Source: a virus (taxonomy: Duplodnaviria > Caudoviricetes). From it: a stretch of DNA of 57,807 nucleotides. Where the stretch lies: the IMG/VR virus record IMGVR_UViG_3300043466_004381, positions 1 to 57,807 of that record; one strand, written 5' to 3'. Every line of letters begins with the position of its first letter. Position 1 is the stretch's first letter. Shown piece after piece: positions 12,838-56,729 of the stretch. The notes beneath the pieces are model-generated. The model was not told the DNA's origin. It did no database searches and saw nothing but the letters and a program-made list of their open reading frames with translations. The position numbers and the translations under genes were made by a program.

Positions 12838-14250
12838 ATGAGTTCTTTTAGTAATCTACTCTCACGTGCATATTTATTAGCTGAAGCAAGAATATCGCCT
12901 TACGCTGCAGCACATCCATCATTTGGCAATGTGACTACACCTATGTCTGATAGAGGTTTGAGCTCTGCCCCGCTTCATACAATGCAGTTTATTAGGGAAA
13001 TTTTGTATAATTTAGATATTATAACACATGATGAGTTACTTTTGCTAAAAAAACCAGCTACTTTTTCTGGAAAAAAACAAGCCTTATTACAAATGCTTAG
13101 AGATAAAGAAAGAGAAATAAACGCTAAAACAAAAGAAATAGAAGAAAGAGTTTCGGATACATTAGATAACTTTATTAACGAAATGATGTTGCGTAACGAA
13201 GAAAAGTACGTTGCGCAGGCTGCAGCAAAAGAAGTAGCAAAGCAAATGAGACAAGCTAGGTCTGGTAAACAAATGGACGATGCTTTGACGGATATAGTTA
13301 CCGATGATTCAATATTAGTTCGCTCTGCCGTTGCACAAATTCTTAATAATATCGAAATGAATTTAGGTGAGCCAGGGTTCGATATAGAAGAAGATGCACT
13401 AAGAGAGGTGGTAGATTATTCAGATCAAATTAATAGCTTACCGACTTTAAAAGCTTACATTAGAAAAATAGCTGTTGAACCCGGAAAAGAAAAAATAGCG
13501 TCATATTTATATTCTGCCGTTAAGCCTATTTCGCAATATATAAGTGCAGGCAATGACCAAGTAAGTGTTGAAGATGAAGAAATGCAAGGATATGCGGGTG
13601 ATGAAGCAGAAGAAGGTGAAGGTAGTGGTAGTTTTGAAGGGTTAGCACAAGATTATAGCGATACATCATTAGTTCCTGAAGTTAAGCAGGTACAATTAAA
13701 AGTACTTGACATGCTTACTGGCTCAGGAGCTTCTGGAACAGAAAAATATGTAACAGAGAGTTTGAGAGGTGCGGTAGCTGGAGTAGGACTTGCAGCAGCA
13801 GCAGTAGGTGGATCAAAAGTAGCACCATATGTAGGTGATGCGGGTAGAGAAGTTGTACGGGTAGCAAAGGATATTAATTCAAAAGGCGGTAACGAAGAGT
13901 TTTTAAATCAAATTACTAACCCTAACGATCGTAAAATGGTCAAAGATGAATTAAAAGCTTTAAAATATGCTGGTCGGGATGCAGAGCTTTCCGGTAAATC
14001 TAGTGCTGTTATGGATAAGAGACTTAAATTTGGCGAAATAGAAAGACAAATGCGCACAAAATATAAAATCTCACCGGAAATTAAACTAACAACAGAAAGT
14101 ACTACTCCGAATACAGCTTTATATCTTACGGAACAAATTAAAAAAGATTCTTTCTATAAGCCTAGTAAAGAAACCCCCGTTACGTTTAAGAACAAATATA
14201 AACCAAAAACGCATTGGCAGCTTGAAGAGCTACGAAGCTACGGGTTATAA
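12838..14250 (+). CDS. Late protein, candidate internal head protein
   Basis: TATAAATA 12824-12831 lies 6 nt before the ATG. N-terminus MSSFSNLLSRAYLLAE; further L/V-T-E sites. Opposite strand to its neighbours. Confidence 0.6.
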   Translation: MSSFSNLLSRAYLLAEARISPYAAAHPSFGNVTTPMSDRGLSSAPLHTMQFIREILYNLDIITHDELLLLKKPATFSGKKQALLQMLRDKEREINAKTKEIEERVSDTLDNFINEMMLRNEEKYVAQAAAKEVAKQMRQARSGKQMDDALTDIVTDDSILVRSAVAQILNNIEMNLGEPGFDIEEDALREVVDYSDQINSLPTLKAYIRKIAVEPGKEKIASYLYSAVKPISQYISAGNDQVSVEDEEMQGYAGDEAEEGEGSGSFEGLAQDYSDTSLVPEVKQVQLKVLDMLTGSGASGTEKYVTESLRGAVAGVGLAAAAVGGSKVAPYVGDAGREVVRVAKDINSKGGNEEFLNQITNPNDRKMVKDELKALKYAGRDAELSGKSSAVMDKRLKFGEIERQMRTKYKISPEIKLTTESTTPNTALYLTEQIKKDSFYKPSKETPVTFKNKYKPKTHWQLEELRSYGL

Positions 14251-23915: not shown

Positions 23916-25352
23916 TCAAGTATTTTTAATATATTTTGTTGTAAATTTTATTTTTTCCTTTGTGTAAATTTCTTGTCTTTTTAAACTATGTGCTAAGCTG
24001 TAACGTAAATTGTCTATTAAATCTATTATAATTAATTTTTCTTTATTAGTATGTTTACGTAGACCGCGACCGATAGATTGGACGGTTCTAATAAAAGATT
24101 TACCCCCAGCAGCAAAAATAATATTATGTAAATTTTTAATATTTATACCTGTAGAAAAAATAGCACTTATAGCAATACATATTACATTGTTGTTTTTTTC
24201 CATTTGTTGTTTTATTTGTTCGCGTTCTATAACATCAACTTCACCTCGTATAAAATACACCTGCTTGTTAGTTAGTTTAGCGATTGTTTTGAAAAGAACT
24301 TCACCGTGTTCTATATAATTTACTAAAATTAAAGTATTGTTTTCGAGCTTGTTACATATACTTCGTATTAAATTATTTCTAAATTCATTATTGTTTATAA
24401 ATTGTAGCTCGTCTCTATAATTGTTACCGGTAGTGTTAATTGGTGATTCACAATAGTCAATATTAATACCTTTTACTTCTGCGTTTACTAAAAAATCTTC
24501 TACACGAAGTTCAAAGCTATTTTTTTCAAATATAACAGGTCCAAATTTACCTATAATGGTCCAGATGTCGATTTGATCTTCAGGTAATGTACCAGTAAAC
24601 CCATACCTGTTCTGTGTTTTAATTTTTGAAACGATTTTACTAATCTTATTATCTGATTTTATTTTATGACATTCATCAACAATTAAAAGATCGACATATT
24701 TTACCCAATCGTTATCATCAAATTGACTTTGTAAAATACCTATATTGCAAATAATTGTATTAGCGGTAAGATCGGGTGTATGTGAGCCTGTCCATTTTGT
24801 TACTTTAAAGGTTGATCCGCAGTTTTTAAATTCTTCATAAGTTTGTTCAACTAACCCAAGGTCAGGTACTATTACAAGACATTTAAATAATTCTTTATTT
24901 TTTTGTTTTATGAAGTAATTCTCAATAAGCGCAGCGGTGGTAAATGTCTTACCTGCACCTGTACCTAAAACGCATGTGCCACGTCCTACTTTTAAAGCTT
25001 TTTCAAGAACATTAATTTGATAATCTCTTAGTTCAAATTTAAACGTTTTATATACGCTGTGTTGCGACCCTGTGTTTAATATAGCTTTTAATTTTTCGGT
25101 TAAAACTATGTCGCATATAATTTGATTATCTATAAAAAACTTGCGTATAAGCCAGTATAGCCCTAAATCACACGCACCTAATGGAGTAATAATGTATTTT
25201 CGTTGCGGTATATATCGACTATAGCGACGCGCGAAACGAGCTCCTGTATTTTCTACGCTAAAATAATCTCTTAAACGTGTAAAAGTATCCTTATCTTCTA
25301 CTTTAACGATAAGTTTTGTAGTATTACTATTATAATCGAACGTAACATTCAT
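23916..25352 (-). CDS. uvsW: SF2 helicase UvsW
   Basis: LRDYQ, TGAGKT, DECH, GFTGT, STGINIKNLH, QSIGRGLR. Confidence 0.93.
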   Translation of the reverse strand: MNVTFDYNSNTTKLIVKVEDKDTFTRLRDYFSVENTGARFARRYSRYIPQRKYIITPLGACDLGLYWLIRKFFIDNQIICDIVLTEKLKAILNTGSQHSVYKTFKFELRDYQINVLEKALKVGRGTCVLGTGAGKTFTTAALIENYFIKQKNKELFKCLVIVPDLGLVEQTYEEFKNCGSTFKVTKWTGSHTPDLTANTIICNIGILQSQFDDNDWVKYVDLLIVDECHKIKSDNKISKIVSKIKTQNRYGFTGTLPEDQIDIWTIIGKFGPVIFEKNSFELRVEDFLVNAEVKGINIDYCESPINTTGNNYRDELQFINNNEFRNNLIRSICNKLENNTLILVNYIEHGEVLFKTIAKLTNKQVYFIRGEVDVIEREQIKQQMEKNNNVICIAISAIFSTGINIKNLHNIIFAAGGKSFIRTVQSIGRGLRKHTNKEKLIIIDLIDNLRYSLAHSLKRQEIYTKEKIKFTTKYIKNT

Positions 25353-25747
25353 TATAACTGCTCCATCTGATTAATTTGTATAATGTTTTTTATTTCCCAA
25401 TGAATAGAACTGAATATTTTTTCAACTTTTTCGAGATATTCAATTATAAAATCGAGTTCTTTAAGTTTATCATTAATAATTTCTATATCTGAGGTGTTTT
25501 CCGCGGCAGCTTCTGCTGTCTGCGTTGTTATTTTGATAGGACTTTCATTAATAATACGCGCTACAAGTTCTTTTTTGTGTTGTTTTTTCTTAGAAAGAAG
25601 TTTGGTTTTATTTATTTTTGCGTCCATTAATCTCGCAACCCAAAAATGTTTACGAGATGGTAGTTTCATTTGCGAGTCTTTAATGTTAAAGTCATCAATT
25701 ATAAGATCTTTATTGACTTCTTCTATGTATCTTTTAAGAGTCTCCAC
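25352..25747 (-). CDS. uvsY: Recombination mediator UvsY-like
   Basis: 131-aa helical protein, DLIID...YLEKVEK...WEIKNII; adjacent to uvsW. Confidence 0.8.
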   Translation of the reverse strand: METLKRYIEEVNKDLIIDDFNIKDSQMKLPSRKHFWVARLMDAKINKTKLLSKKKQHKKELVARIINESPIKITTQTAEAAAENTSDIEIINDKLKELDFIIEYLEKVEKIFSSIHWEIKNIIQINQMEQL

Positions 25748-25753
25748 AGCATT

Positions 25754-25781
25754 ATTATAAATATAAATGTAATGGAATCAA
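25754..25781. promoter_or_regulatory. Overlapping divergent promoters
   Basis: Minus: TTGATT-N16-TATAAT-N6-GTG (uvsY). Plus: TATAAATA 25756-25763 overlapping that -10 box. Confidence 0.6.
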
Positions 25782-26002
25782 GGGGAAAATTCGAGCGTCG
25801 CTTTTTAGTGGTTTTACAGGAAGATTCCACAGTAGCATCTACTGTAGGTAGTTCAGCGGGAGGCTATGATCCACATGCAGGTAGTATTAATTCTAAAGAT
25901 TCTTATGCAACTGATGATATGCGTATAGCAACACCGCCGTCAGTTATACAGACTCGTAAAGGTGCTATAAAACGTAAACGTAAATTAAAGCGTAAAAAAT
26001 GA
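25772..26002 (+). CDS. Small late protein with capsid-N-arm-like motif and basic tail
   Basis: Start reassigned to ATG 25772. GSINSKDSYATDDMR matches gp23 GSINSTDSYANGDAR; C-terminus KRKRKLKRKK. Confidence 0.65.
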   Translation: MESRGKFERRFLVVLQEDSTVASTVGSSAGGYDPHAGSINSKDSYATDDMRIATPPSVIQTRKGAIKRKRKLKRKK

Positions 26003-26412
26003 AATATGGTCATTGGAAAACAGATTTTATTTTAGAAGAAGCCAGTGAAGTTCCTTTTGGGTTTATTTATGAAATAACTAATCTTACAAACAACCGTAAA
26101 TATATAGGCAAGAAGCAATGCCTTAGTGTTAAAAAGCGCCCTCCTTTAAAAGGCAAAACAAAAAAACGTCATCAAATTGTTGAGACGGATTGGAGAACCT
26201 ATACATCCTCTTCGAACGAACTCAATAACGATATATCTATCTTAGGTATAGAAAATTTTTTATTTAAGATTATAATGTGGTGTAATTCTAAATGGGAACT
26301 TAGCTATCATGAAGCTAAGTTACAGTTTGAAAAAGAAGTACTTTTAAACGATGAATATTATAACGGCATCATCAACCTCCGAATCGGTAAAAGACCAAAA
26401 CGAAGTTTATAG
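25999..26412 (+). CDS. GIY-YIG family endonuclease
   Basis: GFIYEITNLTNNRKYIGKK...DWRTYTSSS...YYNG. Confidence 0.85.
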   Translation: MKYGHWKTDFILEEASEVPFGFIYEITNLTNNRKYIGKKQCLSVKKRPPLKGKTKKRHQIVETDWRTYTSSSNELNNDISILGIENFLFKIIMWCNSKWELSYHEAKLQFEKEVLLNDEYYNGIINLRIGKRPKRSL

Positions 26413-26916: not shown

Positions 26917-27339
26917 ATGAGTAAGTTTCTCAAAATAGTAGAGGAGAATAGACCGCTCACCTCTCAAGAGCTAGATAAAGTTACACCTATTAAGCGTATT
27001 TTTCAGAAAGCGTTGTTATCTAATGAAAACAAGTCTATGCTCGATAATCTTGGGCTATCTAAAGTTGAAGTAACAGATAATAGCAATGATATTACACTAA
27101 GATTCAAAGACGGATTTGTTGTTATGTATACAGCTGAAGCAATGAAAGAAGAGGAAACAGAAGATCCGGTTACTAGTGCTGCAGAAACAGTTGCTGCAGA
27201 AGACCCACAAGGAAAAAAACCAACAACCCAGGCGCTCAAACGATATAGAACAATATTAAGAACAGTGGAAACCAAGTTACCTACTGCTCTTGACAACAAA
27301 ACCGCTGGTTTAAAATCTGTAGTAAATAGTATAAAATAA
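26917..27339 (+). CDS. Late protein, candidate internal head protein
   Basis: CATAAATA 26904-26911 lies 5 nt before the ATG; N-terminus MSKFLKIVEE. Confidence 0.6.
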   Translation: MSKFLKIVEENRPLTSQELDKVTPIKRIFQKALLSNENKSMLDNLGLSKVEVTDNSNDITLRFKDGFVVMYTAEAMKEEETEDPVTSAAETVAAEDPQGKKPTTQALKRYRTILRTVETKLPTALDNKTAGLKSVVNSIK

Positions 27340-28180: not shown

Positions 28181-28624
28181 ATGAAATCGTTCAAGCAATT
28201 TTTTGAAAAAACAATAATAGGTCTTATTGAGCATATAGACCTTCATGGTATAGGTACTGTTGAAGCGAAAATCGACTCAGGTAATGGGGCGTTTAATGTA
28301 TTACACGGGGAAGATATTACACAACAAGGTAATAAGGTTACTTTTACAACCGTTAACAATAAGCGTATTATTAAAGATGTAGAAGATACAATTGTTATTA
28401 ATGTAGGAGCTGGTAACACAGAGGAAAGACCGGTTGTAAAATTCCGTATGAAATTTGGAGGTCGTGAGTTTGATAATGTACCGTTTAGTATAGGTAACAG
28501 ATCATCAAATGAGTATAAAATACTAGTTGGTAAAGACTTTATTAAGCAGCTTGATGCATTAATTGATATTGATTCAAAACATATTGCGGATAAGCAACTT
28601 GTGGTACAGATTGATACCAAGTAG
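28181..28624 (+). CDS. Retropepsin-like aspartic protease (RimK-associated family)
   Basis: AKIDSGNG, ERPVV, NRS..EYKILVGKDFI; N-terminus MKSFKQFFE. Confidence 0.85.
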   Translation: MKSFKQFFEKTIIGLIEHIDLHGIGTVEAKIDSGNGAFNVLHGEDITQQGNKVTFTTVNNKRIIKDVEDTIVINVGAGNTEERPVVKFRMKFGGREFDNVPFSIGNRSSNEYKILVGKDFIKQLDALIDIDSKHIADKQLVVQIDTK

Positions 28625-29163: not shown

Positions 29164-29826
29164 TTACCTCGCCATATCAATAAATTTATAGAACTCTGTA
29201 CGTGTCTTTTCATCATCCATAAAGTCACCTGTCAGCTTTGAAGTAATCATATAGCATCCTTCGTGCTTGACTCCACGATGACAAGCGCATGTATGTTGTG
29301 CTTTAACTACAACAGCTACACCACGGTTCTTTTCACATACTCTATCAATAGCTTCAGCAATTTGTTTTGTAAGCCCCTCTTGTATCTGTGGACGTCTAGC
29401 GTAAAACTCAACAATGCGATTTAACTTACTCAAACCAATTACCTTACCATCTAGAGAAGGAATATACGCAACATGTGCGACACCAGTAAACGCAAGATGA
29501 TGATGTGAGCAAAGTGATTTTACAGGAATATTGCATTGCGCAATAACACCATCATACCCATCAGTAGGAAAAGCTGTAACAGACGGTGGTTCATTATAGC
29601 AACCTGAAGCAATATCATTAACAAAAGCTTTTGCTACACGCATCGGTGTATTAGATGAATTGGGATCATTTCTCCAATCAAATCCTAGCGCGTCAAGATA
29701 CTTCTCATATGCTTTTGCGGCACGTTTAATAATAGTTTGTTTTTCCTTTTCTGTACGTGGCGCATTACCGTTAGCACTAGGCAATTTTACCACTTCACCA
29801 AACTCATGATCATCAAATTCTTCCAT
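29164..29826 (-). CDS. folE: GTP cyclohydrolase I
   Basis: [41 protein letters not shown]. Confidence 0.95.
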
Positions 29827-29832
29827 AAAAAA

Positions 29833-29870
29833 ATTATAATATGCTTAATTTTAAATTTCAACTATAAATA
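29833..29870. promoter_or_regulatory. Divergent promoters: sigma70-like for folE, late for the 29876 gene
   Basis: Minus: TTGAAA-N17-TATAAT-N6-ATG. Plus: TATAAATA 29863-29870, then 5 nt to the ATG. Confidence 0.75.
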
Positions 29871-29875
29871 TGTAT

Positions 29876-30838
29876 ATGCGTAAATTTTCACAGGCTGAAT
29901 TATTAAATGAAGCATTTCCAGATTTGTTAAAAGGCGCTGTAAAGCTTGCAGGTAGAGGTGCTTTATCAGCAGGTAAGGGTATAGCTAAGACTATTTCACC
30001 AACAGGATATAATATGGTCAAACAGGCAGGCGAAGCAGCAGGAAAAGCTGTTGCAGGTGTTGCACTTGAGGATCCAATAAATGTATTAAGATCAATGCTA
30101 GCATCTTCTGAAGGTAAAAAAACAATACAAAACGGTAAAATTGGAGCGGAAAAAAAACTTAATGGTGGCTATAGGCAAGTAGAGTTAACAGGTGAATGGA
30201 TTAGTGATCCTACACAACCTCCTACAGCATTTAGTACAAGTGTATTTTTAGTTAAAAATAATAAAAACGAGTGGACTTTCGCTGGGGGATTTGATACAGA
30301 TGGAAATTTTATTTTTAATAATAAAGCAACAAGAAATAGAAATACAACAACAGTCCCTATGGCAGCACAAGCAGCAACACCTCCTGCAGCACAAGCAGCA
30401 ACACCTCCTGCAGCACAAGCAGCAACACCTCCTGCAGCACAAGCGGCAACACCTCCCGCAGCACAAGCGGCAACACCTCCTGCAGCACAAGCAGCAGCAC
30501 CTCCCGCAGCACAAGCGGCAACACCTCCTGCAGCACAAGCAGCAGCACAAGCGGCAACACCTCCTGCAGCACAAGCAGCAACACCTCCAAATAACCAGCA
30601 GGCTAATACAGAAATAGGTACGAAGGTAAAGTGGCAAACAGCAAGAGGTAACGTTCGCGAAGGCGAAATTATTGAAAATGATCCAAGTAAAAACATTGAT
30701 CCTGCAACGCATATTTCTATTCAAGAGCCAGATGGTAAGGTTAATATTGTAAGAAAAGATAAGGTTATTAAAGAAAGTATGACACACATAAATCTTATTG
30801 AAAGTACGAAATTGGAAAATATTTTTAAGTTTAAATAA
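29876..30838 (+). CDS. Late protein with AAQAATPP repeat linker and C-terminal SH3/Tudor-like domain
   Basis: MRKFSQAELLNE N-terminus; repeat; IGTKVKW...REGEII...NIVRKDKV. Confidence 0.65.
   Translation: MRKFSQAELLNEAFPDLLKGAVKLAGRGALSAGKGIAKTISPTGYNMVKQAGEAAGKAVAGVALEDPINVLRSMLASSEGKKTIQNGKIGAEKKLNGGYRQVELTGEWISDPTQPPTAFSTSVFLVKNNKNEWTFAGGFDTDGNFIFNNKATRNRNTTTVPMAAQAATPPAAQAATPPAAQAATPPAAQAATPPAAQAATPPAAQAAAPPAAQAATPPAAQAAAQAATPPAAQAATPPNNQQANTEIGTKVKWQTARGNVREGEIIENDPSKNIDPATHISIQEPDGKVNIVRKDKVIKESMTHINLIESTKLENIFKFK
30362..30589 (+). repeat. Coding 24-bp tandem repeat, about 9.5 copies
   Basis: gcagcacaagc(a/g)gcaacacctcc(t/c) encoding AAQAATPP, with one half unit. Confidence 0.95.
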
Positions 30839-30842
30839 AAAT

Positions 30843-30933
30843 TTCCCGAATCCACTTGCAATCGTGGTCTCGGATGAATAAGTGGATTGTAGAGACCTGT
30901 ACGGAAGAGTTTATTTTAACTCACAAAAATAAA
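30843..30933. ncRNA. Candidate structured RNA (pseudoknot) of unknown family
   Basis: aatccactt 30849-30857 pairs with aagtggatt 30880-30888. Loop ggtctc 30866-30871 pairs with gagacc 30892-30897. GC-richer than other intergenic DNA. Confidence 0.45.
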
Positions 30934-30935
30934 AG

Positions 30936-30964
30936 TTGATATTTTCTGTTTATTACTTTATAAT
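30936..30964 (+). promoter_or_regulatory. Sigma70-like promoter of queD
   Basis: TTGATA-N17-TATAAT-N6-ATG. Confidence 0.75.
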
Positions 30965-30970
30965 ATTTTT

Positions 30971-31621
30971 ATGAGTAAATATCAAAGTACGAAAATCATC
31001 GAACTTGGCTCTTGTTCATTTAGACAATGGAGAGCAACACATTCACACTGTAGATTCTTACATGGTTATCAGCTCAAAGCTAAACTCTGGTTCGGCGCAT
31101 CGTCACTTGATGATAAAAACTGGTGTGTAGATTTCGGTGGTCTGAAAGAATTAAAAGCAAAGCTACAACACGTCTTCGATCACACAACTACCGTAGCAGC
31201 AGATGACCCTGAGCTCGAGACATTTAAAGATCTAGATAGACGTGGTATTATACAATTACGTATCCTCGAAAAAGGCGTCGGTGTAGAGCGTGTTGCTGAA
31301 ACAGTATGCAGTATTGCTGATAGCTATATTAAATCACTTACAAATAATAGATGTTGGGTCGAAAAGGTTGAAGTATTTGAACATGAAGAAAACTCAGCAA
31401 TATTTACAACGCAGGGTACTTCTACCTCCGTTAGTACAAAAAGCAATACATTAACTACTTCAAATAGTGTGCTTAATAAAGACGACGATATGTCTGCATC
31501 TTGCGAAGAAGATGTAGCAATTTGTTCAGGTATTCCTCTTATTAAAGATAATGCAGCACATGTAGGGTCAAATACTTCAGAGGGGAAAGGTAATTGGTTC
31601 GCTGGTACCACCTGGGGTTAA
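30971..31621 (+). CDS. queD: 6-carboxytetrahydropterin synthase QueD-like with C-terminal extension
   Basis: HSHCRFLHGY, VDFGGLK, FDHT, GVE..AE, VEVFEHEENSA. Confidence 0.9.
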   Translation: MSKYQSTKIIELGSCSFRQWRATHSHCRFLHGYQLKAKLWFGASSLDDKNWCVDFGGLKELKAKLQHVFDHTTTVAADDPELETFKDLDRRGIIQLRILEKGVGVERVAETVCSIADSYIKSLTNNRCWVEKVEVFEHEENSAIFTTQGTSTSVSTKSNTLTTSNSVLNKDDDMSASCEEDVAICSGIPLIKDNAAHVGSNTSEGKGNWFAGTTWG

Positions 31622-32367
31622 TGTTTCGCTTCTAAAACATCGACAATAAATCGTAAGATTTTACTTCTTACGATTTCTGTTTCACCAAACTTAAATGCGT
31701 AGATTTTATTATCTACGCATTTTTCATTATTAAAGCGCTTAAATATTTCTTCATATCCAGAAGCTTTCCCGATATCTGACTGCTTTAAATCGCCACAAAC
31801 AATATATTTTGTATTTTTACCAAATCGGGTTAATATTGTTACAAGCTCTCCCTTTGTTAGGTTTTGCGCTTCGTCAACTATAACCACAGAATCGTTAAAG
31901 GTTAAACCACGTACGAAGTTTACAGGTACGGCATGTATAATATTATTTGTTTGTAGTAATCCACAGGTACCATCATCAGTAACTTCTCTAACCTTTTCGA
32001 TCAAAGGCATTGCATATGGTAAAAACTTATCATCTACTTCACCAGGAAGTGCGCCAATAGACCTTGATGCGGACTCGATAACAGATCTAATATAGGTAAT
32101 ACCTCTCGTCTTTTGATCCTTTATTAATTCCAATCCAGCAAGTACAGCAATATACGATTTAGCGCTACCCGCTGGTCCATCAACAAACACCATGTTCGTT
32201 TCTTCATGCTTTATACATTCATAAAACGCCTTGTGATTAGTGTTGAAGTAGAAGGGCTTTTTAATTTTAAAATTAAAAAGCCAGTTTTTTTGGATAGAAT
32301 CTTCGATATCTACTAATTCATCCAAACCTGCATTTTTACGCTTACGCGTAGTGGACTTGTGAGTCAT
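31618..32367 (-). CDS. phoH: PhoH family ATPase
   Basis: GPAGSAKS, GALPG, FVRGLTF, VDEAQN, LTRFG, GDLKQSD, IVRS. Preceded by AATAAATA. Confidence 0.95.
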   Translation of the reverse strand: MTHKSTTRKRKNAGLDELVDIEDSIQKNWLFNFKIKKPFYFNTNHKAFYECIKHEETNMVFVDGPAGSAKSYIAVLAGLELIKDQKTRGITYIRSVIESASRSIGALPGEVDDKFLPYAMPLIEKVREVTDDGTCGLLQTNNIIHAVPVNFVRGLTFNDSVVIVDEAQNLTKGELVTILTRFGKNTKYIVCGDLKQSDIGKASGYEEIFKRFNNEKCVDNKIYAFKFGETEIVRSKILRFIVDVLEAKH

Positions 32368-32428
32368 GCATTAGTATTTATTCAAAAACACTTGATTCTA
32401 TTAGGAACTATGTCATAATATAAAGTAT

Positions 32429-33190
32429 ATGAGCGTAAACTGTGATACGGAAACTATCTTTTTAAGTGATGATCTTATCTTTTATACTCTTGAAGGCGAA
32501 GGTGAATATATTGGCCAACCATCTGTTTTTATGAGAATGTCTATGTGTAATCTTACATGCGTAGGATTTGCATCAGAGGATTCCCCTAATGGTTGTGACT
32601 CGTTTATCTCATGGTCAGTAAAGAATAAAAAGACTTTTAATGAAATCTTTGATCTCATGGAGACGGGTAATCACGTTACACATTTACGTGAAGGTGCTAT
32701 CTGGAAGCTCACAGGTGGTGAGCCTATGATTCAACAGAAACAATTGCTTAAGTTTGTTGAAGCATTTAGAGATCGGTACAATTTTACACCGCGAATTGAC
32801 TTTGAAACTAATGCTACGTTAATGCCAGATGAGCGTTGGGTTACAGAGTTTAATGCTACATTCACCACCTCACCTAAGCTTACAACGAACGGCGATCCGG
32901 AAGAAAAGACATATAAACCTGAGGTACTTAAGTGGCATAAAGATCATAACTCTGGTTTCAAGTTTGTAATTAGCAGATCTGAAGACATTGAAGAAATCTG
33001 GCGTAAGTATGTAAATGATAAGGCGGATATTAACGTACCGCTTAGTCGTGTATGGTTTATGCCATGCTGCGGATCACGCGAAGAACATATTGAGAAAGCT
33101 CTAGCTGTTGCTGAATATGCTAAAGCAATGCATGTTAATTTTAGTCCAAGACTTCACTTGCTTCTCTGGAACATGGCGCTTAAAGTCTAA
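32429..33190 (+). CDS. queE: 7-carboxy-7-deazaguanine synthase QueE (radical SAM)
   Basis: FYTLEGEG..IGQPSVFMR, CNLTC-x11-CDS, TGGEP, FETN, SPKL, FKFV, SPRLH. Confidence 0.92.
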   Translation: MSVNCDTETIFLSDDLIFYTLEGEGEYIGQPSVFMRMSMCNLTCVGFASEDSPNGCDSFISWSVKNKKTFNEIFDLMETGNHVTHLREGAIWKLTGGEPMIQQKQLLKFVEAFRDRYNFTPRIDFETNATLMPDERWVTEFNATFTTSPKLTTNGDPEEKTYKPEVLKWHKDHNSGFKFVISRSEDIEEIWRKYVNDKADINVPLSRVWFMPCCGSREEHIEKALAVAEYAKAMHVNFSPRLHLLLWNMALKV

Positions 33191-33792
33191 TGAAAACATA
33201 CAAGACCTTAGTACTAAATAAGTATTATTTTCCTGTTGCTGTAGAAGGTGTTCAAAAAACATTCGGCAATATCTTTTCCGGTGCAGTAATACCTTTGGAT
33301 ATTACTTACGAAGAAGGAGATGATGCTAGCGTTAATTTAGAAAACATTGAATATTTTACAACAGTACCGCATGTAAGTGATTGGTTATCACTCCCTATAC
33401 GACCATATGATGATTATTTACATACAGCTCGCGGACCTGTGAGAGTGCCACAAGTGGTAATATGTACGAACTTTGATAGAGTTATTTTTAATCGCGTGCA
33501 GTTTCCTACCAAACATAACATTTATAAACGCGATAATTACACATGCGTCTACACAGGTAAAAAGCTCACAAAAGAGCAGTTAAGTGTTGATCATGTTGTA
33601 CCTAGAAGTAAAGGTGGTAAAGATACATGGGAGAATCTTGTTACATGTGATCGCTTACTTAACTCTAAAAAAAGTAATAAGTATTTAAGCGAAGTGGGAT
33701 TAAAGCTTAGATACAGACCATATAGACCTAATAATGGTCTTACGTTCGATATCTATAAAGATGAGTGGTCATCATTCTTAAAAAATTGCTAA
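33190..33792 (+). CDS. HNH endonuclease
   Basis: RDNYTCVYTG...DHVVPRSKGGKDTWENLVTC...NSKK. Confidence 0.9.
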   Translation: MKTYKTLVLNKYYFPVAVEGVQKTFGNIFSGAVIPLDITYEEGDDASVNLENIEYFTTVPHVSDWLSLPIRPYDDYLHTARGPVRVPQVVICTNFDRVIFNRVQFPTKHNIYKRDNYTCVYTGKKLTKEQLSVDHVVPRSKGGKDTWENLVTCDRLLNSKKSNKYLSEVGLKLRYRPYRPNNGLTFDIYKDEWSSFLKNC

Positions 33793-35610: not shown

Positions 35611-35662
35611 ATAGTTATTTATTAGCGACTTGATTTTTTGGAATAAAAAATATAATTATTGT

Positions 35663-36520
35663 ATGAATATTGGTGTAGGTGTGGTTACTCGTAATAGACC
35701 TAAACATCTAAAGAATCTTCTATATTCTTTGGTACAATGCAAGTCAGATATAAATGAGTTAATTGTTGTAAACGATGGCGAACAGATTGACGATTTAAAG
35801 CATTTTAACACATCAAACCTAGATATTACGTGGGTGCAGAATCCTAAAAATATAGGGGTAGGTAAATCAAAGAACAAAGCTATGCAGCATCTTCTAGATA
35901 AAGGATGTGATTATATTTTTATTTTAGAAGACGATATTGAAATTACTAATAGCGATATTTTTAATAATTACATAAAAGCGAGTAAAATTACAGGTATACA
36001 GCATTTTAATTTTGGACCTGGTACACCCTTTAACAGAACACAAAATATTACACGATACGATCTACACAATAGACATCTATTAAGTAACATATCTAAACCT
36101 AACCCTAAAATAACAATACAATACTCATCTGATGTATCGATTGATTTATATGAGCATATTGCTGGGGTTTTTAGCTTCTTTACTAGAGAGATATTACTCG
36201 CAGTAGGGCTACACGATGATATATTCTTTAATGCGTGGGAGCACGTCGATCACACTTATCGGATAATTAAAGCAAACGGACATCCTGCTTTTTGGTGGTT
36301 TGCAGATATAACCGATAGCTCTACCATGATTACTATACCTAGCGATGCTATAGATACCAGCGTAACATCAAAAAATACAGATGAATGGTACGATACTGTT
36401 AACATCGGTCGTGAAGCATACAGGAAAAAGCACGGATTCTATCCAAATATGTGCCCGCTAGATACAAAACAAACAATCATCCAACAACTAAAGGAAATAA
36501 AAAATAAATGGAAGATCTAA
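35663..36520 (+). CDS. GT2 glycosyltransferase
   Basis: VVTRNR, VVNDG, NIGVGKSKN, ILEDD, WEHVD. Start reassigned after TTGATT-N15-TATAAT-N6. Confidence 0.88.
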   Translation: MNIGVGVVTRNRPKHLKNLLYSLVQCKSDINELIVVNDGEQIDDLKHFNTSNLDITWVQNPKNIGVGKSKNKAMQHLLDKGCDYIFILEDDIEITNSDIFNNYIKASKITGIQHFNFGPGTPFNRTQNITRYDLHNRHLLSNISKPNPKITIQYSSDVSIDLYEHIAGVFSFFTREILLAVGLHDDIFFNAWEHVDHTYRIIKANGHPAFWWFADITDSSTMITIPSDAIDTSVTSKNTDEWYDTVNIGREAYRKKHGFYPNMCPLDTKQTIIQQLKEIKNKWKI

Positions 36521-37923
36521 CATTAATTACATGCTCATACAATACACCTGACATAACACTTACAATGTTAAGATCGTGGATAGCTTCTCACGATATAACG
36601 CAACGAATAATCTTATGCGATAACTCTACAAACGATGAAACAAGTAATTTATTAAAGTTACATAACATACCGTTTATTGCATCTACTGGAGCAAGTCATG
36701 GTGAAGGTATTAATTACGCATTAAATCTATGCACAACAAAGTATGCTCTTCTTGTTGATACAGATGTTGTTTTTCTAAAAAATCATAGCGATATTTTTAA
36801 GCAATTTAAAGATATGGATCTCACCTTAATGGGTAAAATTGAAGGTGATAGAGGCGGTAAGTCTATACACAAACGCGTCAATCCTTGGCACTGTTTTATT
36901 AACGTTGAGGATATCAAAAAACATAATATTACCTTTTTTGATAGTGAAAGAATGAGAGAAAGCTTTTCTACAAATAAAATTTATGATATTGGATCAACGT
37001 TTTTAGAAGATATAAAAAAACACAATTTAAAAGTTGGTGATATAGATCTTCAAAATAAATTGTTTATTCACTTCGAAGGAATGAGCTGGTATAAAAATAA
37101 ATTTGACGATACCAAAGAAGATACAGGTATTGATTTTGGCGGCACCCACAACAACCCTGCATATTTACAAGCTTATAATTATAAGTATAACATCTACAAA
37201 AAATACGAACAGCAGTATAGAGATTATATAATAACTGACAAATTTATTTGTAAGGAGCCCAAACTACTAATAAAATTTCCAACAAGAAATAGAGTTAATA
37301 AATTTTTTGCAACACTTGACAAATATTATGAATTACTTTCGAATAAGCGCGAGGTTGAGTTTCTTATTACGTGTGATTTAGATGATGAAACTATGAACAA
37401 CTCTGTAGTAAGAGAGAGGTTAAAGCTGTATAAAAATCTTAATGTAGAATATAGTAATAATAAAAATAAAGTTGAAGCTATTAACTCTGGTATTAAAAAT
37501 CGAAATTTTGAAATTTTATTATTAGCTTCTGACGATATGATACCCATAATTAAAGATTTCGATTCTAAAATTATTACTGATATGTGTAATAATTTTCCAG
37601 ACTTTGATGGCGTTCTTTGGTACAATGACGGGGTACAGCGTAATAGACTTAATACCCTTTGCATTTTAGGTAAAAAATATTACAATCGATTTGGTTATAT
37701 TTATAACCCTGAGTACAAGTCACTATGGTGTGATATGGAATTTACACAAGTTGGTAACATACTCGATAAACAAAAATACTTTGACGAAATTATTATTAAA
37801 CACGCACACCATACAACTTTAAATGAAGAAATGGACGAGTTATATTTAAAAAACGAAACCTATGAAACAGTAGATAAAGATACTTTTTTAAGAAGACAAA
37901 AAACTTATTTTAATTTAAAATGA
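36508..37923 (+). CDS. Two-domain GT-A glycosyltransferase
   Basis: Domain 1: CSYNT, CDNS, VDTDV, YDIGS. Domain 2: KFPTRNR, ASDDM, SLWCDMEF. Confidence 0.85.
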   Translation: MEDLTLITCSYNTPDITLTMLRSWIASHDITQRIILCDNSTNDETSNLLKLHNIPFIASTGASHGEGINYALNLCTTKYALLVDTDVVFLKNHSDIFKQFKDMDLTLMGKIEGDRGGKSIHKRVNPWHCFINVEDIKKHNITFFDSERMRESFSTNKIYDIGSTFLEDIKKHNLKVGDIDLQNKLFIHFEGMSWYKNKFDDTKEDTGIDFGGTHNNPAYLQAYNYKYNIYKKYEQQYRDYIITDKFICKEPKLLIKFPTRNRVNKFFATLDKYYELLSNKREVEFLITCDLDDETMNNSVVRERLKLYKNLNVEYSNNKNKVEAINSGIKNRNFEILLLASDDMIPIIKDFDSKIITDMCNNFPDFDGVLWYNDGVQRNRLNTLCILGKKYYNRFGYIYNPEYKSLWCDMEFTQVGNILDKQKYFDEIIIKHAHHTTLNEEMDELYLKNETYETVDKDTFLRRQKTYFNLK

Positions 37924-48816: not shown

Positions 48817-49944
48817 GTGAAAAAATACACGTATAATTTTGAAGTAAAAGACCTTTTAACGCAGTTTGCTGCAGCGTTCGATGATATAGTTATAAAAAGA
48901 TATAACGCTACACGCGAATCTAAAGAAGAAATTTCCGTTCGCTACGTACTCGGTCCTAAAGAAAGGGTAATGTACGATATTGTCAATAAAGCGCAAAATC
49001 TAACATTGCCTGTTATAGCAATTAACCCTACTTCGATATCTCGTGACTCTTCTCGTGTTTTTAACAAATTAGACGGCTTTTACAATTACAAAAACGAAGC
49101 ATATCTCAATACAATTAAGACACCGGTACCAATAAACATTACCGTTAGCGTATCAATTCTTGCGAGATATATGCAAGATATGGATCAAATAGTCTCTAAT
49201 TTTATTCCATACGCTAACCCATATATTATTATTTCGTGGAAAGAGCCTCTCGGTCTCACGACTGAAACGTTCGAGATAAGAACAGAAGTACTTTGGGATG
49301 GCAATATTAACCTAACTTCCCCAACAGATTTAACTTATAGTGATAAATTTAGAATTACAGCAGATACAACATTTACAATTAAAGGGTGGCTGTTTAAAGA
49401 TTCGAACGTAAATTACCCTTCAATATATAATGTTAAAATTAACAATATTACACCGTACACGGGATTCGATTTTAATACCCTTGATGATGATAGCTACAGC
49501 ACGAAAGCATACTCACTTACAGCCGATTCATCAACAGATATTATAAGCGGCGGACCGATAATAACAAACGCCTTCTACACCACACGCGGCTCAATGTTAC
49601 CTGTTACCCATCCTATTACCTTTAATAAACAATTAACAGGTAATAATAGCTTTTTGTTTTACGGAACAGGGTTGAGCAGCGTCACAACAGTATTGTTAAG
49701 TTCAAACAATAATACTTTAACATCTGGTCTGACATCTCTGAAATGTAAGTCTAATGTAATTTCTGGATTTAAATTATCGCCTTCATCTTATAATATTATT
49801 AATGATAATTTATTATCTGTAAATATTCCGTATCTTTCTGGCAGTGGTAAGGTAGATATACTTCTTTTTGCTCCGCAAGGATGCTTTTCAACATTTTCAA
49901 TGAATAACTTTCATTTTAGTGATACATATAATTTACCTTGTTAG
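48817..49944 (+). CDS. gp15: Tail sheath terminator/stabiliser (gp15-like) with C-terminal Ig-like extension
   Basis: QFAAAFDDIVIKR, YVLGPKE, TLP, PVPINI, DMDQIVSNFIPY.NP, FTIKGWLF. Confidence 0.8.
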   Translation: MKKYTYNFEVKDLLTQFAAAFDDIVIKRYNATRESKEEISVRYVLGPKERVMYDIVNKAQNLTLPVIAINPTSISRDSSRVFNKLDGFYNYKNEAYLNTIKTPVPINITVSVSILARYMQDMDQIVSNFIPYANPYIIISWKEPLGLTTETFEIRTEVLWDGNINLTSPTDLTYSDKFRITADTTFTIKGWLFKDSNVNYPSIYNVKINNITPYTGFDFNTLDDDSYSTKAYSLTADSSTDIISGGPIITNAFYTTRGSMLPVTHPITFNKQLTGNNSFLFYGTGLSSVTTVLLSSNNNTLTSGLTSLKCKSNVISGFKLSPSSYNIINDNLLSVNIPYLSGSGKVDILLFAPQGCFSTFSMNNFHFSDTYNLPC

Positions 49945-53437: not shown

Positions 53438-54103
53438 ATGTCTTTAAAATTGAATCTCTTAGTAGAAAAACCAGTAATTGATGATAGCTTCGAATACATT
53501 GTTGAAGAAAGTAATCGCAATACACCAGCTACTCTCTATATAAAAGGTCCATATATGATGGCTGAAGGTATAAACAAAAATAAAAGACTTTATCCTATTG
53601 ATGAATTAAGATTAGAAGTTAATAGGTACAACGATGAAATGGTAAAGCCAGGCCGCGCAATGGGTGAACTAAATCACCCGACCTCAGCAGATGTTGATCT
53701 TGAACGTGCATGTCATGTTGTTACAGAGATGTATGAAGATAATAATGTTTTTTATGGGAAGTCAAAAGTACTATCAACGCCGTGTGGTTTAATAGTAAAA
53801 TCGCTTATTAATGATGGAGTAAAAGTAGGTATGTCTTCAAGAGCATTAGGTACTTTAGAAGAAAGTCGCGGTTGTAATGTTGTACGAAACATGAAGCTAG
53901 TAGCTATTGACTGTGTTGCAGATCCGTCTTTCCCTAAAGCTTTCGTCAATGGTATTCTAGAATCCAAGCAATGGGTCCTAGCTAACAATGGTAAGTTTGA
54001 AGAAGCGTATGATACCTTTGAAAAAACAATTAATACTTTACCACGCAAAGATTTAGATGCTTATTTACGCGAGCAAATTTTAAACTTTATTAATAAAATA
54101 TAA
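53438..54103 (+). CDS. gp21: Prohead protease (gp21)
   Basis: NKNKRLY, GELNHP, STPCG, GMSSRALG, DCVADPS. Confidence 0.95.
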   Translation: MSLKLNLLVEKPVIDDSFEYIVEESNRNTPATLYIKGPYMMAEGINKNKRLYPIDELRLEVNRYNDEMVKPGRAMGELNHPTSADVDLERACHVVTEMYEDNNVFYGKSKVLSTPCGLIVKSLINDGVKVGMSSRALGTLEESRGCNVVRNMKLVAIDCVADPSFPKAFVNGILESKQWVLANNGKFEEAYDTFEKTINTLPRKDLDAYLREQILNFINKI

Positions 54104-54324: not shown

Positions 54325-55170
54325 ATGAATATTACAAAAATGTTACCGGAACAAGTTACAGATCTTCTGACCGAAGAATCCTTAACATCAATACAGAACG
54401 CTATTAAAGATAAAACAAGTGTACTTGTTGAGGCTGCGCTAGTAGAACAAGATGAGCTATACGCAAAGAAGCTTACTGTATTAATGAGCGCTATTGATAA
54501 AGATCATACTGCTAAGCTTAAAAGAGTGGTTGAATCTATCGATCGCGTTAACGCTAACAAGCTTCTTAAAGTAGTTAAAAAATACGAAACAGAAATTAAC
54601 CAATCCGCAGCAGAATTTAAAAATACGCTTGTAGAGTCAATTTCGCAGTATTTAGAAGAGTTTATTAACGAAGCTATTCCTTCTGAAGCAATACAAGAAG
54701 CAACAAAGAATAGAACAGCTGTTGAAGTATTAAGCAACTTAAGAAAAGTGCTTGCTGTGGATTCAGCGTTGATGAGCGAATCAGTAAAAGATGCTGTTCT
54801 CGATGGTAAAAACCAAATTGATCAATTGACAGCTGAGGTTAAAAAGCTAAGCAATGAAAACAATCTTCTTAAAGAAAATTATAATAAGACAAAAGCTGAT
54901 CTTATTTTAGAATCGAAGACAGCAGGTCTTTCTGAGAAGAAAAAAGAATATATTAAGCGCGTACTTGGTGATAAAACACCTAAATTTATTGTAGAAAACT
55001 TTGATTATACCTTAAGACTCTTTGAAAAGAAAGAAGCAGAAAATCTTAATGTCATTAAAGAGCAAGCCTTTACAAAACGTACTGTAAAAGCGGATGCTCC
55101 TAGAGAGATTGTACGTGAAGAAAAACAACAAAAAAATCCGTACTTATCTGAACTTCAAAGAATGAAATAA
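54325..55170 (+). CDS. gp22: Prohead scaffold protein (gp22)
   Basis: Coiled coil with LTEE, LVESISQYL, ILESKT.GLS; directly upstream of the major capsid gene. Confidence 0.85.
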   Translation: MNITKMLPEQVTDLLTEESLTSIQNAIKDKTSVLVEAALVEQDELYAKKLTVLMSAIDKDHTAKLKRVVESIDRVNANKLLKVVKKYETEINQSAAEFKNTLVESISQYLEEFINEAIPSEAIQEATKNRTAVEVLSNLRKVLAVDSALMSESVKDAVLDGKNQIDQLTAEVKKLSNENNLLKENYNKTKADLILESKTAGLSEKKKEYIKRVLGDKTPKFIVENFDYTLRLFEKKEAENLNVIKEQAFTKRTVKADAPREIVREEKQQKNPYLSELQRMK

Positions 55171-55188: not shown

Positions 55189-55226
55189 AGGTGCTAGACA
55201 CCTGAGTAACATGAGCTTAGCTCATG
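55189..55226 (+). promoter_or_regulatory. Twin hairpins in the gp23 leader
   Basis: aggtg-ctaga-cacct and catgagc-tta-gctcatg, followed by AAAGGA about 14 nt before ATG 55257. Confidence 0.5.
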
Positions 55227-55256
55227 AAGGTCGAAAGAAAGGAAATAAAGCTAATT

Positions 55257-56729
55257 ATGAATAAACCACAGTCATTTATCGATAGAAACAGAGCTGATAC
55301 ACTTCTAGAGAAGTGGGCACCAGTTCTTGATTTCAAGTCTGATTCTTGTAAGGAAATTCGTGACGAGCACACACGTCTTAACACTGCTGTTCTTCTTGAG
55401 AACCAAGAGAAGTGGTGTATGGAGCAAACAGTCGCAGGTAGCGGCGGTGGTGTTGTTGGTGCCTTTGGCGCTAACGCATACTCTGGTGGTCAATATAACC
55501 CACCAGGTTCAATCAACAGCACTGACTCTTATGCGAATGGTGATGCACGTCTTCCGAAGATTCTTATCCCAATGATTCGTCGTACGTTCCCTGAGCTTAT
55601 CTCCAACGAAATCGTCGGTGTACAACCAATGTCCGGCCCAGTCGGTCTTGCTTTTGCTTTACGCTATAAGTATGACACAACTGGTCTTGGTACTGGTGGT
55701 AGCGACGTTGGCTCAAATCCAAACCCACACTATACAGTAGGTAATGCAAATGGCCGTGAACTTGGTTATCAATATATTGATTCCAGATTCACAGGTACAT
55801 CTTCATCACGTCTCTCTGGTGCTGATGCTTGGAGATTTGCTGCACAGGATCAAGGTGTTGCTGAAATTCTCAAGAACTTTGAGATTCAAAACAACATTCC
55901 TCAGATTAACGTGTCCTTCGAGAAAACAGCTGTTGAAGCTGGTACTCGTAGACTCGGTGCTCGTTGGTCAGTAGAACTTGAGCAAGACCTCAAGAACATG
56001 AATGGTATCGATATCGATGCTGAGATCACAAACGCTATGTCGTATGAGATCCAAGCAGAAATCGACCGTGAAATGATCATGAGAATGGTTCAAGCTGCTC
56101 TTGGAGCTGGTTTTGGTGCAGGTTACTCCGTATGGAGCCCAGCATCTGCTGACGGTCGTTGGTTGGTTGAGCGTAATAGAGACTTCTATCAGAAGCTTAT
56201 CATCGAAGCAAACAGAATCGCTGTTCGTAACAGACGCGGTGCTGCTAACTTCATCGTTGCTACACCACGTGTTTGCGCGATTCTTGAAATGCTTCCTGAA
56301 TTCCAATGGGTCCCAGTTCAAGGCGATGTATCTACACAACCTGTAGGTATTGCTAAGATTGGTTCTGTTGGTGGAAGATTCAGCGTATACCGTGATACAC
56401 GTACCGAAGCTCAAAACTCCAATCTCTACGGTGATCAAGGATATACCAACCCAGACGTACCATCCGGTACTTATACATCTGGTGTTGAGTATGCTCTTCT
56501 TGGCTACAAGGGACCAGAGTTCTACGATACAGGTATCATCTACTGTCCTTACATTCCGATCATGGTACAAAGAACAATCGGACCACAAGACTTCGCTCCA
56601 CGCGTAGGCTTGCTCACCCGTTATGGTGTCGTCGATAATATCTTCGGCGCTAACCTTTACTACCATGTTGTTATTGTTTCAGGGCTAGGTACTGCGTTCT
56701 CTCCTGCAGCTCAGAACGTATACTTCTGA
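55257..56729 (+). CDS. gp23: Major capsid protein (gp23)
   Basis: LLEKWAPVL, LLENQ, GVQPMSGPVGL.FALR, ELEQDL, EIDRE, YCPYIP, TRYG. Start reassigned to MNKPQ. Confidence 0.98.
   Translation: MNKPQSFIDRNRADTLLEKWAPVLDFKSDSCKEIRDEHTRLNTAVLLENQEKWCMEQTVAGSGGGVVGAFGANAYSGGQYNPPGSINSTDSYANGDARLPKILIPMIRRTFPELISNEIVGVQPMSGPVGLAFALRYKYDTTGLGTGGSDVGSNPNPHYTVGNANGRELGYQYIDSRFTGTSSSRLSGADAWRFAAQDQGVAEILKNFEIQNNIPQINVSFEKTAVEAGTRRLGARWSVELEQDLKNMNGIDIDAEITNAMSYEIQAEIDREMIMRMVQAALGAGFGAGYSVWSPASADGRWLVERNRDFYQKLIIEANRIAVRNRRGAANFIVATPRVCAILEMLPEFQWVPVQGDVSTQPVGIAKIGSVGGRFSVYRDTRTEAQNSNLYGDQGYTNPDVPSGTYTSGVEYALLGYKGPEFYDTGIIYCPYIPIMVQRTIGPQDFAPRVGLLTRYGVVDNIFGANLYYHVVIVSGLGTAFSPAAQNVYF

Follow-up and report, generated by a model that had tools for sequence, protein, structure and literature searches.

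A free-standing, basic-tailed copy of the major capsid protein cut site and N-terminal arm in uncultured T4-like phages: a candidate internal head peptide

What might a phage gain from a second, free-standing copy of a short piece of its own major capsid protein? The question is raised by an open reading frame of 76 codons and a TGA stop at positions 25772–26002 (plus strand) of the IMG/VR virus record IMGVR_UViG_3300043466_004381, whose whole 57,807-nucleotide length was analysed and is here called the window. The window is a 57.8-kb viral record of a T4-like phage, with an estimated completeness of 27%, and it also encodes gp23, the major capsid protein that the microprotein resembles (501 residues; 55224–56729, plus strand; Pfam Gp23 E 1e-85, phrog_138). 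An initial annotation, made from the letters alone, had proposed that the microprotein mimics the N-terminal arm of gp23, and that it either occupies an arm-binding site in the shell and tethers DNA there or regulates capsid assembly. We find a conserved gene whose product copies both the cut site and the arm of gp23; the explanation that we favour, and to which we give an even chance, makes it an internal head peptide: it would be directed into the prohead, trimmed by the gp21-type protease and able to bind DNA, and would owe its incorporation or retention to capsid mimicry.

The likeness to gp23 was first noted in a 15-residue motif, GSINSKDSYATDDMR (microprotein residues 37–51; 25880–25924, plus strand), 11 of whose 15 positions are identical in gp23 residues 95–109 (55506–55550). 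Coordinates and translations proved exact on recheck, as did the pattern E-x(1-2)-TVA...GG-(x)-Y-x-P that precedes the motif in both proteins. The local BLOSUM62 score of the pair is 66, against 38 for the runner-up among the 290 open frames of the window, and none of 2000 shuffles reached it (mean 28.5, s.d. 4.4, maximum 57); an independent search of the record returned the same match at E 6.3e-4. HHalign comparison of the microprotein profile with the gp23 profile matched them at 98.1% probability (E 1.1e-13), aligning microprotein residues 11–62 with gp23 residues 62–120. By this profile comparison the two stretches are homologous, and the protein-level copy of the arm proposed in the initial annotation is upheld and now takes in the cut site. 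The microprotein profile matches the gp23 N-terminus in 16 of 18 records; with the window gp23 as query, microproteins were matched in 8 of 10 other records, at 50–67% identity over gp23 residues 70–115, and no microprotein match at E≤0.001 was returned in the two records nearest to the window. The HK97-type body (P, A and I domains) of the gp23 family PF07068, whose match spans gp23 residues 111–476, is lacking from the 76-residue microprotein, in which Pfam finds no match.

The microprotein frame is a real gene under purifying selection. Ten close homologues of 76–80 residues were found, 15 viral loci carry the microprotein, and more divergent copies were present in every longer record examined; the pairwise ratio of non-synonymous to synonymous divergence (dN/dS) was 0.05–0.22 in 12 of 14 pairs, the remaining two being saturated. 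Searching 1.84 billion proteins with a profile of 27 members retrieved 561 representative clusters with a cut-off of E≤1e-3, of which 138 reach E≤1e-10. Of the best 150 representatives, 106 are at most 100 residues long, 19 are longer than 150 and one, P0104, is a spurious repeat protein. Three complete genomes of relatives (G011, G012 and G032) span 209–230 kb, and all three carry the microprotein; the copy in G012 is divergent, was missed by the profile and lies at the expected place. The family was seen here only in uncultured T4-like phages of about this size. No family in Pfam or PHROGs matches the microprotein, a profile search of solved structures in the PDB gave no match (best E 0.78) and the ESM Atlas returned unnamed viral clusters only; tblastn over 50,697 records of isolate phages, with three family members as queries, gave only one match, an irrelevant one (E 5), in a search whose low-complexity filter may mask some. 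A decaying gene fragment was considered as well and is ruled out by the dN/dS values together with the family-wide conservation.

Which part of the capsid protein has been copied? In the window, gp23 residues 62–120 (55407–55583, plus strand) run from the last part of the propeptide over the cut site (C-M-E before Q) into the N-terminal arm. By alignment, the copied stretch corresponds to T4 gp23 residues ~60 to 105, a span with the L-T-E cut site, which A66 follows, and the N-terminal part of gp23*. Residues 66–105 of T4 gp23* are described as disordered and inward-pointing in the unexpanded head, where the scaffolding core is their probable contact; the stretch also includes the sites of the head-length mutations A66D, A94V and G97S, and M98, which touches the portal whisker (PMC9546572). 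Across 26 gp23 sequences of the clade, Y103, A104, D107, R109–K112 and L114–E124 are invariant, and D-x-Y-A-x-G-D-x-R-[IL]-P-K is retained by 130 of the best 150 microprotein representatives. The copy continues unbroken through the gp23 motif ending RRTFPE in some members, P0047, P0099 and P0112 among them; the poly-Lys run of RRTFPE-containing members stands after that motif or is inserted ahead of it.

The likeness does not look recent. The initial annotation had held that the shared residues mostly use different codons, and the five codon pairs that it listed are correct; the real pattern, however, is codon identity at the level of chance. In the window pair the same codon is used at 7 of 15 identical degenerate positions, against 6.7 expected from gp23 codon usage, and across eight microprotein/gp23 pairs the count is 75 of 184 identical positions, where 83.6 would be expected. 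The microprotein and gp23 of relative G014 share 13 consecutive identical residues, six of them with the same codon. In all 10 pairs examined, synonymous divergence (dS) between the paralogues either was 0.95 or more or could not be computed (for the orthologues of G024 and G035 it was 0.65). Since codon identity is at chance and dS is saturated, the likeness is, to judge from these sequences, old and maintained by selection on the protein, and the earlier claim that no recent DNA copy was involved stands. Independent recent duplications and recent gene conversion are ruled out by the chance-level codons, the dS values and the syntenic locus; older, episodic gene conversion is a possible contributor to the likeness.

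Co-variation of the microprotein with its own gp23 had been offered initially as the check on the mimicry idea. We scored 11 independent microprotein/gp23 pairs from single records, excluding the duplicate G033, and found that the sum of cognate scores was reached by 29 of 200,000 permutations; for the variable stretch alone, from cut site to core motif, 79 of 200,000 reached the observed value. Without G035 the whole-copy count was 177 of 200,000, also without G024 it was 1171, and also without G014 it was 10,097; for the variable part, removal of G035, then G024, then G014 gave 525, 3008 and 25,957 of 200,000. Behind the signal stand the G024/G035 clade and G014, with a weak contribution from the window; it is gone once G024, G035 and G014 are removed. 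The microproteins of the window, G014, G013 and G035 have their own gp23 as best match; for those of G016 and G018 it is among the worst matches, and in G032 and G012 it is not a good match either. Co-variation is therefore significant overall, but rests on two or three lineages and is poor in these four records. The lineage-specific matching could reflect selection to match, or rare ancient conversion followed by purifying selection. That four records match poorly speaks against any strict need to match in the Gly-rich part.

The microprotein reads as a leader, an arm copy and a basic tail. The leader (residues 1–17, MESRGKFERRFLVVLQE; 25772–25822, plus strand) ends in L15-Q16-E17, and a prohead-protease cut is predicted after E17, a residue that is nearly invariant in the microprotein alignment. 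The arm copy (residues 18–62; 25823–25957, plus strand) consists of a Gly/Ser-rich stretch, the 15-residue motif and IATPPSVIQTR, and is predicted to be disordered. The tail (residues 63–76, KGAIKRKRKLKRKK; 25958–25999, plus strand) contains KRKRKLKRKK and belongs to a protein with an isoelectric point of 10.4 and 17 K+R; it would presumably bind DNA. The cleavable-looking leader and the KRKRKLKRKK tail, both pointed out initially, are conserved across the family: the [L/I]-x-E end recurs at the sequence level, and 143 of the best 150 representatives carry a basic run, a feature second in constancy only to the core motif. Of 144 representatives, 136 have [LIMVFCY]-x-E ahead of the core motif, at a median distance of 26 residues, and 108 of these 136 have L or I at P3. 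AlphaFold2 places a leader helix at residues 6–19 in a model otherwise of low confidence (pLDDT, its predicted local distance difference test score, 63.5); a complex prediction of two gp23 chains (residues 68–501) with microprotein residues 18–76 scored 0.00, was run without controls and is no evidence either way.

The leader recalls those of T4, whose internal proteins are described as carrying targeting propeptides of 10–19 residues that gp21 cuts after L/I-X-E, with positions 4 and 7 serving targeting and positions 8 and 10 serving processing (PMC9026906). The leader of T4 IPII/IPIII reads MKTYQEFIAE, and leaders of the microprotein family fit M-x-x-[FY]-x-x-[LFI]...[LIMV]-x-E, as in MKTFDQLYTKIME of G014 and MITFKQFVMNE of G011; M-x-x-[FY]-x-x-[LFI] is clear in G014, G011, G013, G018, G024, G035 and G032. 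The same genome supplies the expected partners: a gp21-type prohead maturation protease (53438–54103, plus strand; phrog_207 E 2.6e-55), the expected cutter of gp23 and of the microprotein, which would cleave after E17, and a gp22-type scaffolding protein (54325–55170, plus strand; phrog_237 E 2.2e-4), the expected docking partner of the leader or arm within the prohead.

Three more open reading frames of the window, all on the plus strand, begin with a leader like the T4 capsid targeting sequence (CTS): 26917–27339 (140 residues, MSKFLKIVEE...), 28181–28624 (147 residues, MKSFKQFFEKTIIGLIE...) and 12838–14250 (470 residues, MSSFSNLLSRAYLLAE...), two of them with ATAAATA ahead. Those scanned gave no PHROG match, and by their leaders the three may encode further prohead-targeted proteins.

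The module also occurs in longer proteins. DUF5661 follows the arm module in P0022, P0142 and P0061, the last of which shows, in addition, a weak similarity to ART-PolyVal that falls short of the Pfam cut-off, and P0016 and P0020 have a weak ParB-like region together with PHROGs of unknown function; the Pfam/PHROG scan of the long forms returned only DUF5661, two such PHROGs and the weak ParB-like and ART-PolyVal matches. P0132, P0158, P0076, P0152 and P0160 have a CTS-like leader, then the cargo and only then the module, which keeps its own x-E site directly before its Gly-rich start. A conserved C-terminal extension after an acidic linker is found in L010, L011, L013, L014, L016 and L019 (122–129 residues) and in P0092 and P0107; this extension has two Cys, in a part ending ...CRQGKIWKKK, and no Pfam or PHROG match. 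The microprotein of the window is the bare module without cargo.

The cargo fusions and the T4-CTS-like leader point first to a packaged internal protein, a reading that is broader than the one initially proposed and compatible with it. We suggest that the leader would bring the microprotein into the prohead scaffolding core, where the gp21-type protease would cut after L-Q-E17. The released peptide would carry, at its new N-terminus and over the ~45 residues that come next, a copy of the mature gp23 arm. Scaffold peptides of T4 are described as leaving through openings of 14–17 Å (PMC9546572), because of which a peptide of ~60 residues would need an anchor; the arm copy may borrow the contacts of the real gp23 arm, so that the peptide is incorporated and not lost like scaffold fragments, while the Lys/Arg tail would bind packaged DNA. 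In relatives, the module with its cargo domains would act as a general packaging and retention tag. The presence of the protease and scaffold genes in the same genome supports an internal head peptide, and so does ATAAATA before the microprotein start, as at the portal and protease genes, which suggests late expression.

Several points weigh against this explanation. Targeting, cleavage, retention, DNA binding and presence in prohead or virion are inferred from sequence, and none of the 50,697 isolate records offers a cultured phage with the microprotein gene and hence virion proteomes. The window leader is three residues longer than the CTS-like pattern, with its aromatics at positions 7 and 11 and not at 4 and 7. 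[LIMV]-x-E triplets are frequent by chance in a 50-residue stretch, which makes the count of 136 in 144 weak by itself; the cut-site reading for this reason leans more on the fixed alignment column of E17 and on the persistence of the site inside longer proteins. A named cargo domain was found in only 3 of 10 long forms scanned, in each case DUF5661, a domain without known function. If a T4-type leader is enough for targeting, the strong conservation of the arm copy is left unexplained, as is its tracking of the cognate gp23 in some lineages.

A rival explanation, developed from the initial annotation, is that the cleaved peptide docks as a surrogate gp23 arm, stays in the shell of the mature head and pins DNA by its poly-Lys run; the surroundings of the portal, or gp23 pentons in a clade without gp24, would be places that lack a real arm or hold a distorted one. 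We consider this distinctly unlikely, and find doubtful to a like degree its fullest form, in which the processed peptide begins with the residues that begin mature gp23, fits as a free-standing surrogate into lattice sites that receive the arm, whether in the portal ring or in the pentons of this clade without gp24, co-evolves with its own gp23 at the level of protein and holds the genome by poly-Lys. In its favour, the copy spans the whole arm to RRTFPE in some members (P0047, P0099 and P0112, for example), the mature N-terminus would equal that of gp23*, and the tracking in the G024/G035 clade and G014 comes without sign of recent DNA exchange. A search for a gp24-type vertex paralogue in the three complete genomes detected none (one gp23-like gene per genome at E≤1); their pentons are presumably made of gp23, which makes such a staple more attractive. 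T4 arm contacts are described as extensive within and between capsomers, M98 touching the portal whisker (PMC9546572), and a precedent exists in P1 DarA-Hdf, pairs of which sit on the inner capsid surface at penton–hexon junctions and touch DNA (PMC12810830). Yet the T4 arm is externalised on expansion (PMC9546572), and a peptide behaving likewise would have its N-terminal part outside and span the shell; the poor cognate matches in G016, G018, G032 and G012 are hard to square with strict docking, and cargo-bearing relatives are more in keeping with a protein meant for delivery than with a staple fixed in the structure. An unlikely reading that nevertheless deserves somewhat more weight is that the microprotein competes with, or adds to, the contacts of the gp23 N-terminus with the core, and so adjusts how assembly initiates, how long the head grows or when it expands, like gp67 and gp68. 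The T4 mutations A66D, A94V and G97S fall in the same region of gp23, a region regarded as a likely gp22 contact (PMC9546572); gp67 and gp68 are small gp21-cut core proteins with likely roles in size determination (PMC9026906), T4 gp68 also has a terminal basic run, and the gene appears universal in the clade (3 of 3 complete genomes, divergent in G012). Such a regulator has no sequence similarity to gp67 or gp68, however, its gene lies outside the portal–protease interval, and neither the poly-Lys run nor the cargo fusions are explained.

Two further ideas seem to us very improbable. The microprotein might be a decoy or pacing substrate that presents the gp23 cut site in trans and thereby buffers or times gp21; its cut-site context is shared with the cognate gp23 (N-E-D-N-T-A in both G024 proteins, for example), and T4 has a head protein annotated as a protease inhibitor, inh, encoded near uvsW. 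The best-conserved part, D-x-Y-A-x-G-D-x-R-[IL]-P-K, nevertheless lies a median of 26 residues past the cut, outside plausible protease subsites, and a decoy would need neither the basic tail nor the cargo fusions. No more credible is a late cytoplasmic DNA-binding protein, or a partner of the neighbouring SegE-like nuclease, that never enters the head and whose gp23 likeness is a relic. The microprotein is strongly basic, and its gene overlaps that of the nuclease (ATGA), which follows it in 17 of 24 loci; against this, the microprotein is kept in the 7 of 24 loci where the nuclease gene is missing, and the arm copy is under purifying selection and kept with its cut site even inside longer proteins, as a relic would not be.

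How does an internal head peptide of this kind compare with known systems? T4 IPI, IPII, IPIII and Alt are small, basic, late proteins with diverse mature parts and a propeptide of 10–19 residues that has aromatic or hydrophobic targeting positions and ends in L/I-x-E, where gp21 cuts (PMC9026906); the microprotein is small and basic, has a late-promoter-like motif and ends its putative propeptide in L-Q-E, its aromatics standing at positions 7 and 11. It shows no sequence homology to the T4 proteins beyond the leader pattern (Pfam, PHROGs), and its mature part is homologous to gp23; a gp23 N-arm copy followed by poly-Lys is found in none of the T4 internal proteins, and packaging and ejection are here predicted from sequence. 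T4 gp24 offers a capsid-gene duplicate that is a separate, gp21-trimmed head component (PMC9546572), a role that the microprotein would share; gp24 is a full-length gp23 paralogue with the whole HK97-type body, whereas the microprotein keeps ~55 residues around the cut site and arm. T4 gp67 and gp68 are likewise described as small core components cut by gp21 and are suspected of head-size roles (PMC9026906), and gp68 has a basic C-terminus, but homology to them is not detectable, gp67 is highly acidic and their genes lie between portal and protease, whereas that of the microprotein lies beside uvsY. The nearest functional precedent for a capsid–DNA tether is P1 DarA-Hdf, whose N-terminus is removed by the prohead protease and which is bound to the inner surface, turns a positive face to the DNA and is released with it (PMC12810830); DarA-Hdf is large and folded, with binding domains of its own that are not capsid-like, while the proposed anchor of the microprotein copies the capsid arm. 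The longer members string leader, cargo and module together with cut sites between them, as do polyvalent phage proteins that are packaged and injected (PMC5512222), unlike which the microprotein of the window is a single bare module, and a module absent from named Pfam and PHROG families.

Leader-targeted, protease-trimmed internal head proteins are thus already known, and what appears new is a mature part that copies the cut site and arm of the capsid protein; in the literature searched, supplements apart, we found no description of a free-standing conserved copy of a major capsid protein cut site and arm used as a module, alone or with cargo. If our explanation is true, large capsids have a second, mimicry-based way of loading and holding small peptides and cargo domains, and a packaging tag with which to engineer an abundant group of uncultured phages suggests itself. 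Should the peptide indeed stand in for the arm, the module would amount to a transferable tag of natural origin, derived from the capsid protein itself, by which cargo could be displayed within the capsid. The family also offers, in their hundreds, naturally occurring variants of the arm by which T4 controls head length and capsomer bonding, and a number of these come paired with the cognate capsid protein.

The gene is preceded by a late-promoter-like motif, TATAAATA (25756–25763, plus strand), that starts 16 nucleotides before the ATG, a spacing common to all 15 of the loci L005–L019; ATAAATA lies at most 45 nucleotides upstream in 7 of 13 more divergent loci. In the window, (N)ATAAATA is found 6–16 nucleotides before the starts of the portal, protease and gp3-like genes and of several genes of unknown function (starts at 48817, 49983, 51816, 53438, 26917, 27735 and 12838), a distance much shorter than that from late motif to start in T4; gp22 and gp23 of the window have no ATAAATA directly upstream. 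The late promoter claimed initially is accordingly a motif that is present and conserved in position but not commoner in this AT-rich window than chance (15 occurrences against 15.2 expected), and it carries weight because of that position and conservation and not by count.

Upstream and divergent lies a uvsY-like gene (25352–25747, minus strand; phrog_231 E 4e-8), which serves as a synteny marker: 25 of the 26 loci, all except G014, have such a frame upstream of the microprotein, on the other strand. Downstream, the microprotein stop overlaps the ATG of a SegE-like GIY-YIG gene (25999–26412, plus strand; 137 residues; PF19835 E 2.5e-31), whose counts above refer to loci with enough flank; that it holds one position in many, not all, relatives is unusual for a mobile homing endonuclease. 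The microprotein gene lies 24 kb from the portal gene, outside the portal–protease interval, and order and distance vary: gp23 is 29.5 kb downstream of it in the window, ~36 kb away in G002 and G024, and ~58 kb away on the other side in G014.

Besides the genes already named, the window encodes uvsW and uvsY, and its head genes are those for the portal, a head-closure protein, the gp21-type protease, the gp22-type scaffold and gp23. The window gp23 is only ~32% identical to those of isolates, T4-like cyanophages and a Pelagibacter phage being the top matches, while at least 599 IMG/VR stretches carry a gp23 that is 63–81% identical to it; the large aquatic phages described in PMC12619734 belong to another lineage. 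Lake water and freshwater are the labels of DNA sequencing runs that contain the window stretch. No RNA run is listed as containing it; one RNA-labelled run has contigs over 25428–25814 only, which are probably DNA, and a metatranscriptome run yielded none, results that have no bearing on expression of the microprotein.

In L031, the IMG/VR relative of highest gp23 identity (81%), the frame from the matched ATG (1501–1512) stops after four codons, which may reflect a frameshift, a sequencing error or a different start. The window also carries a gene set of the 7-deazaguanine DNA-modification type at 29164–33190 and 35630–37923, with GTP cyclohydrolase, QueD-like and QueE-like genes; an HNH endonuclease gene at 33190–33792 interrupts the set, and two glycosyltransferase genes come after it.

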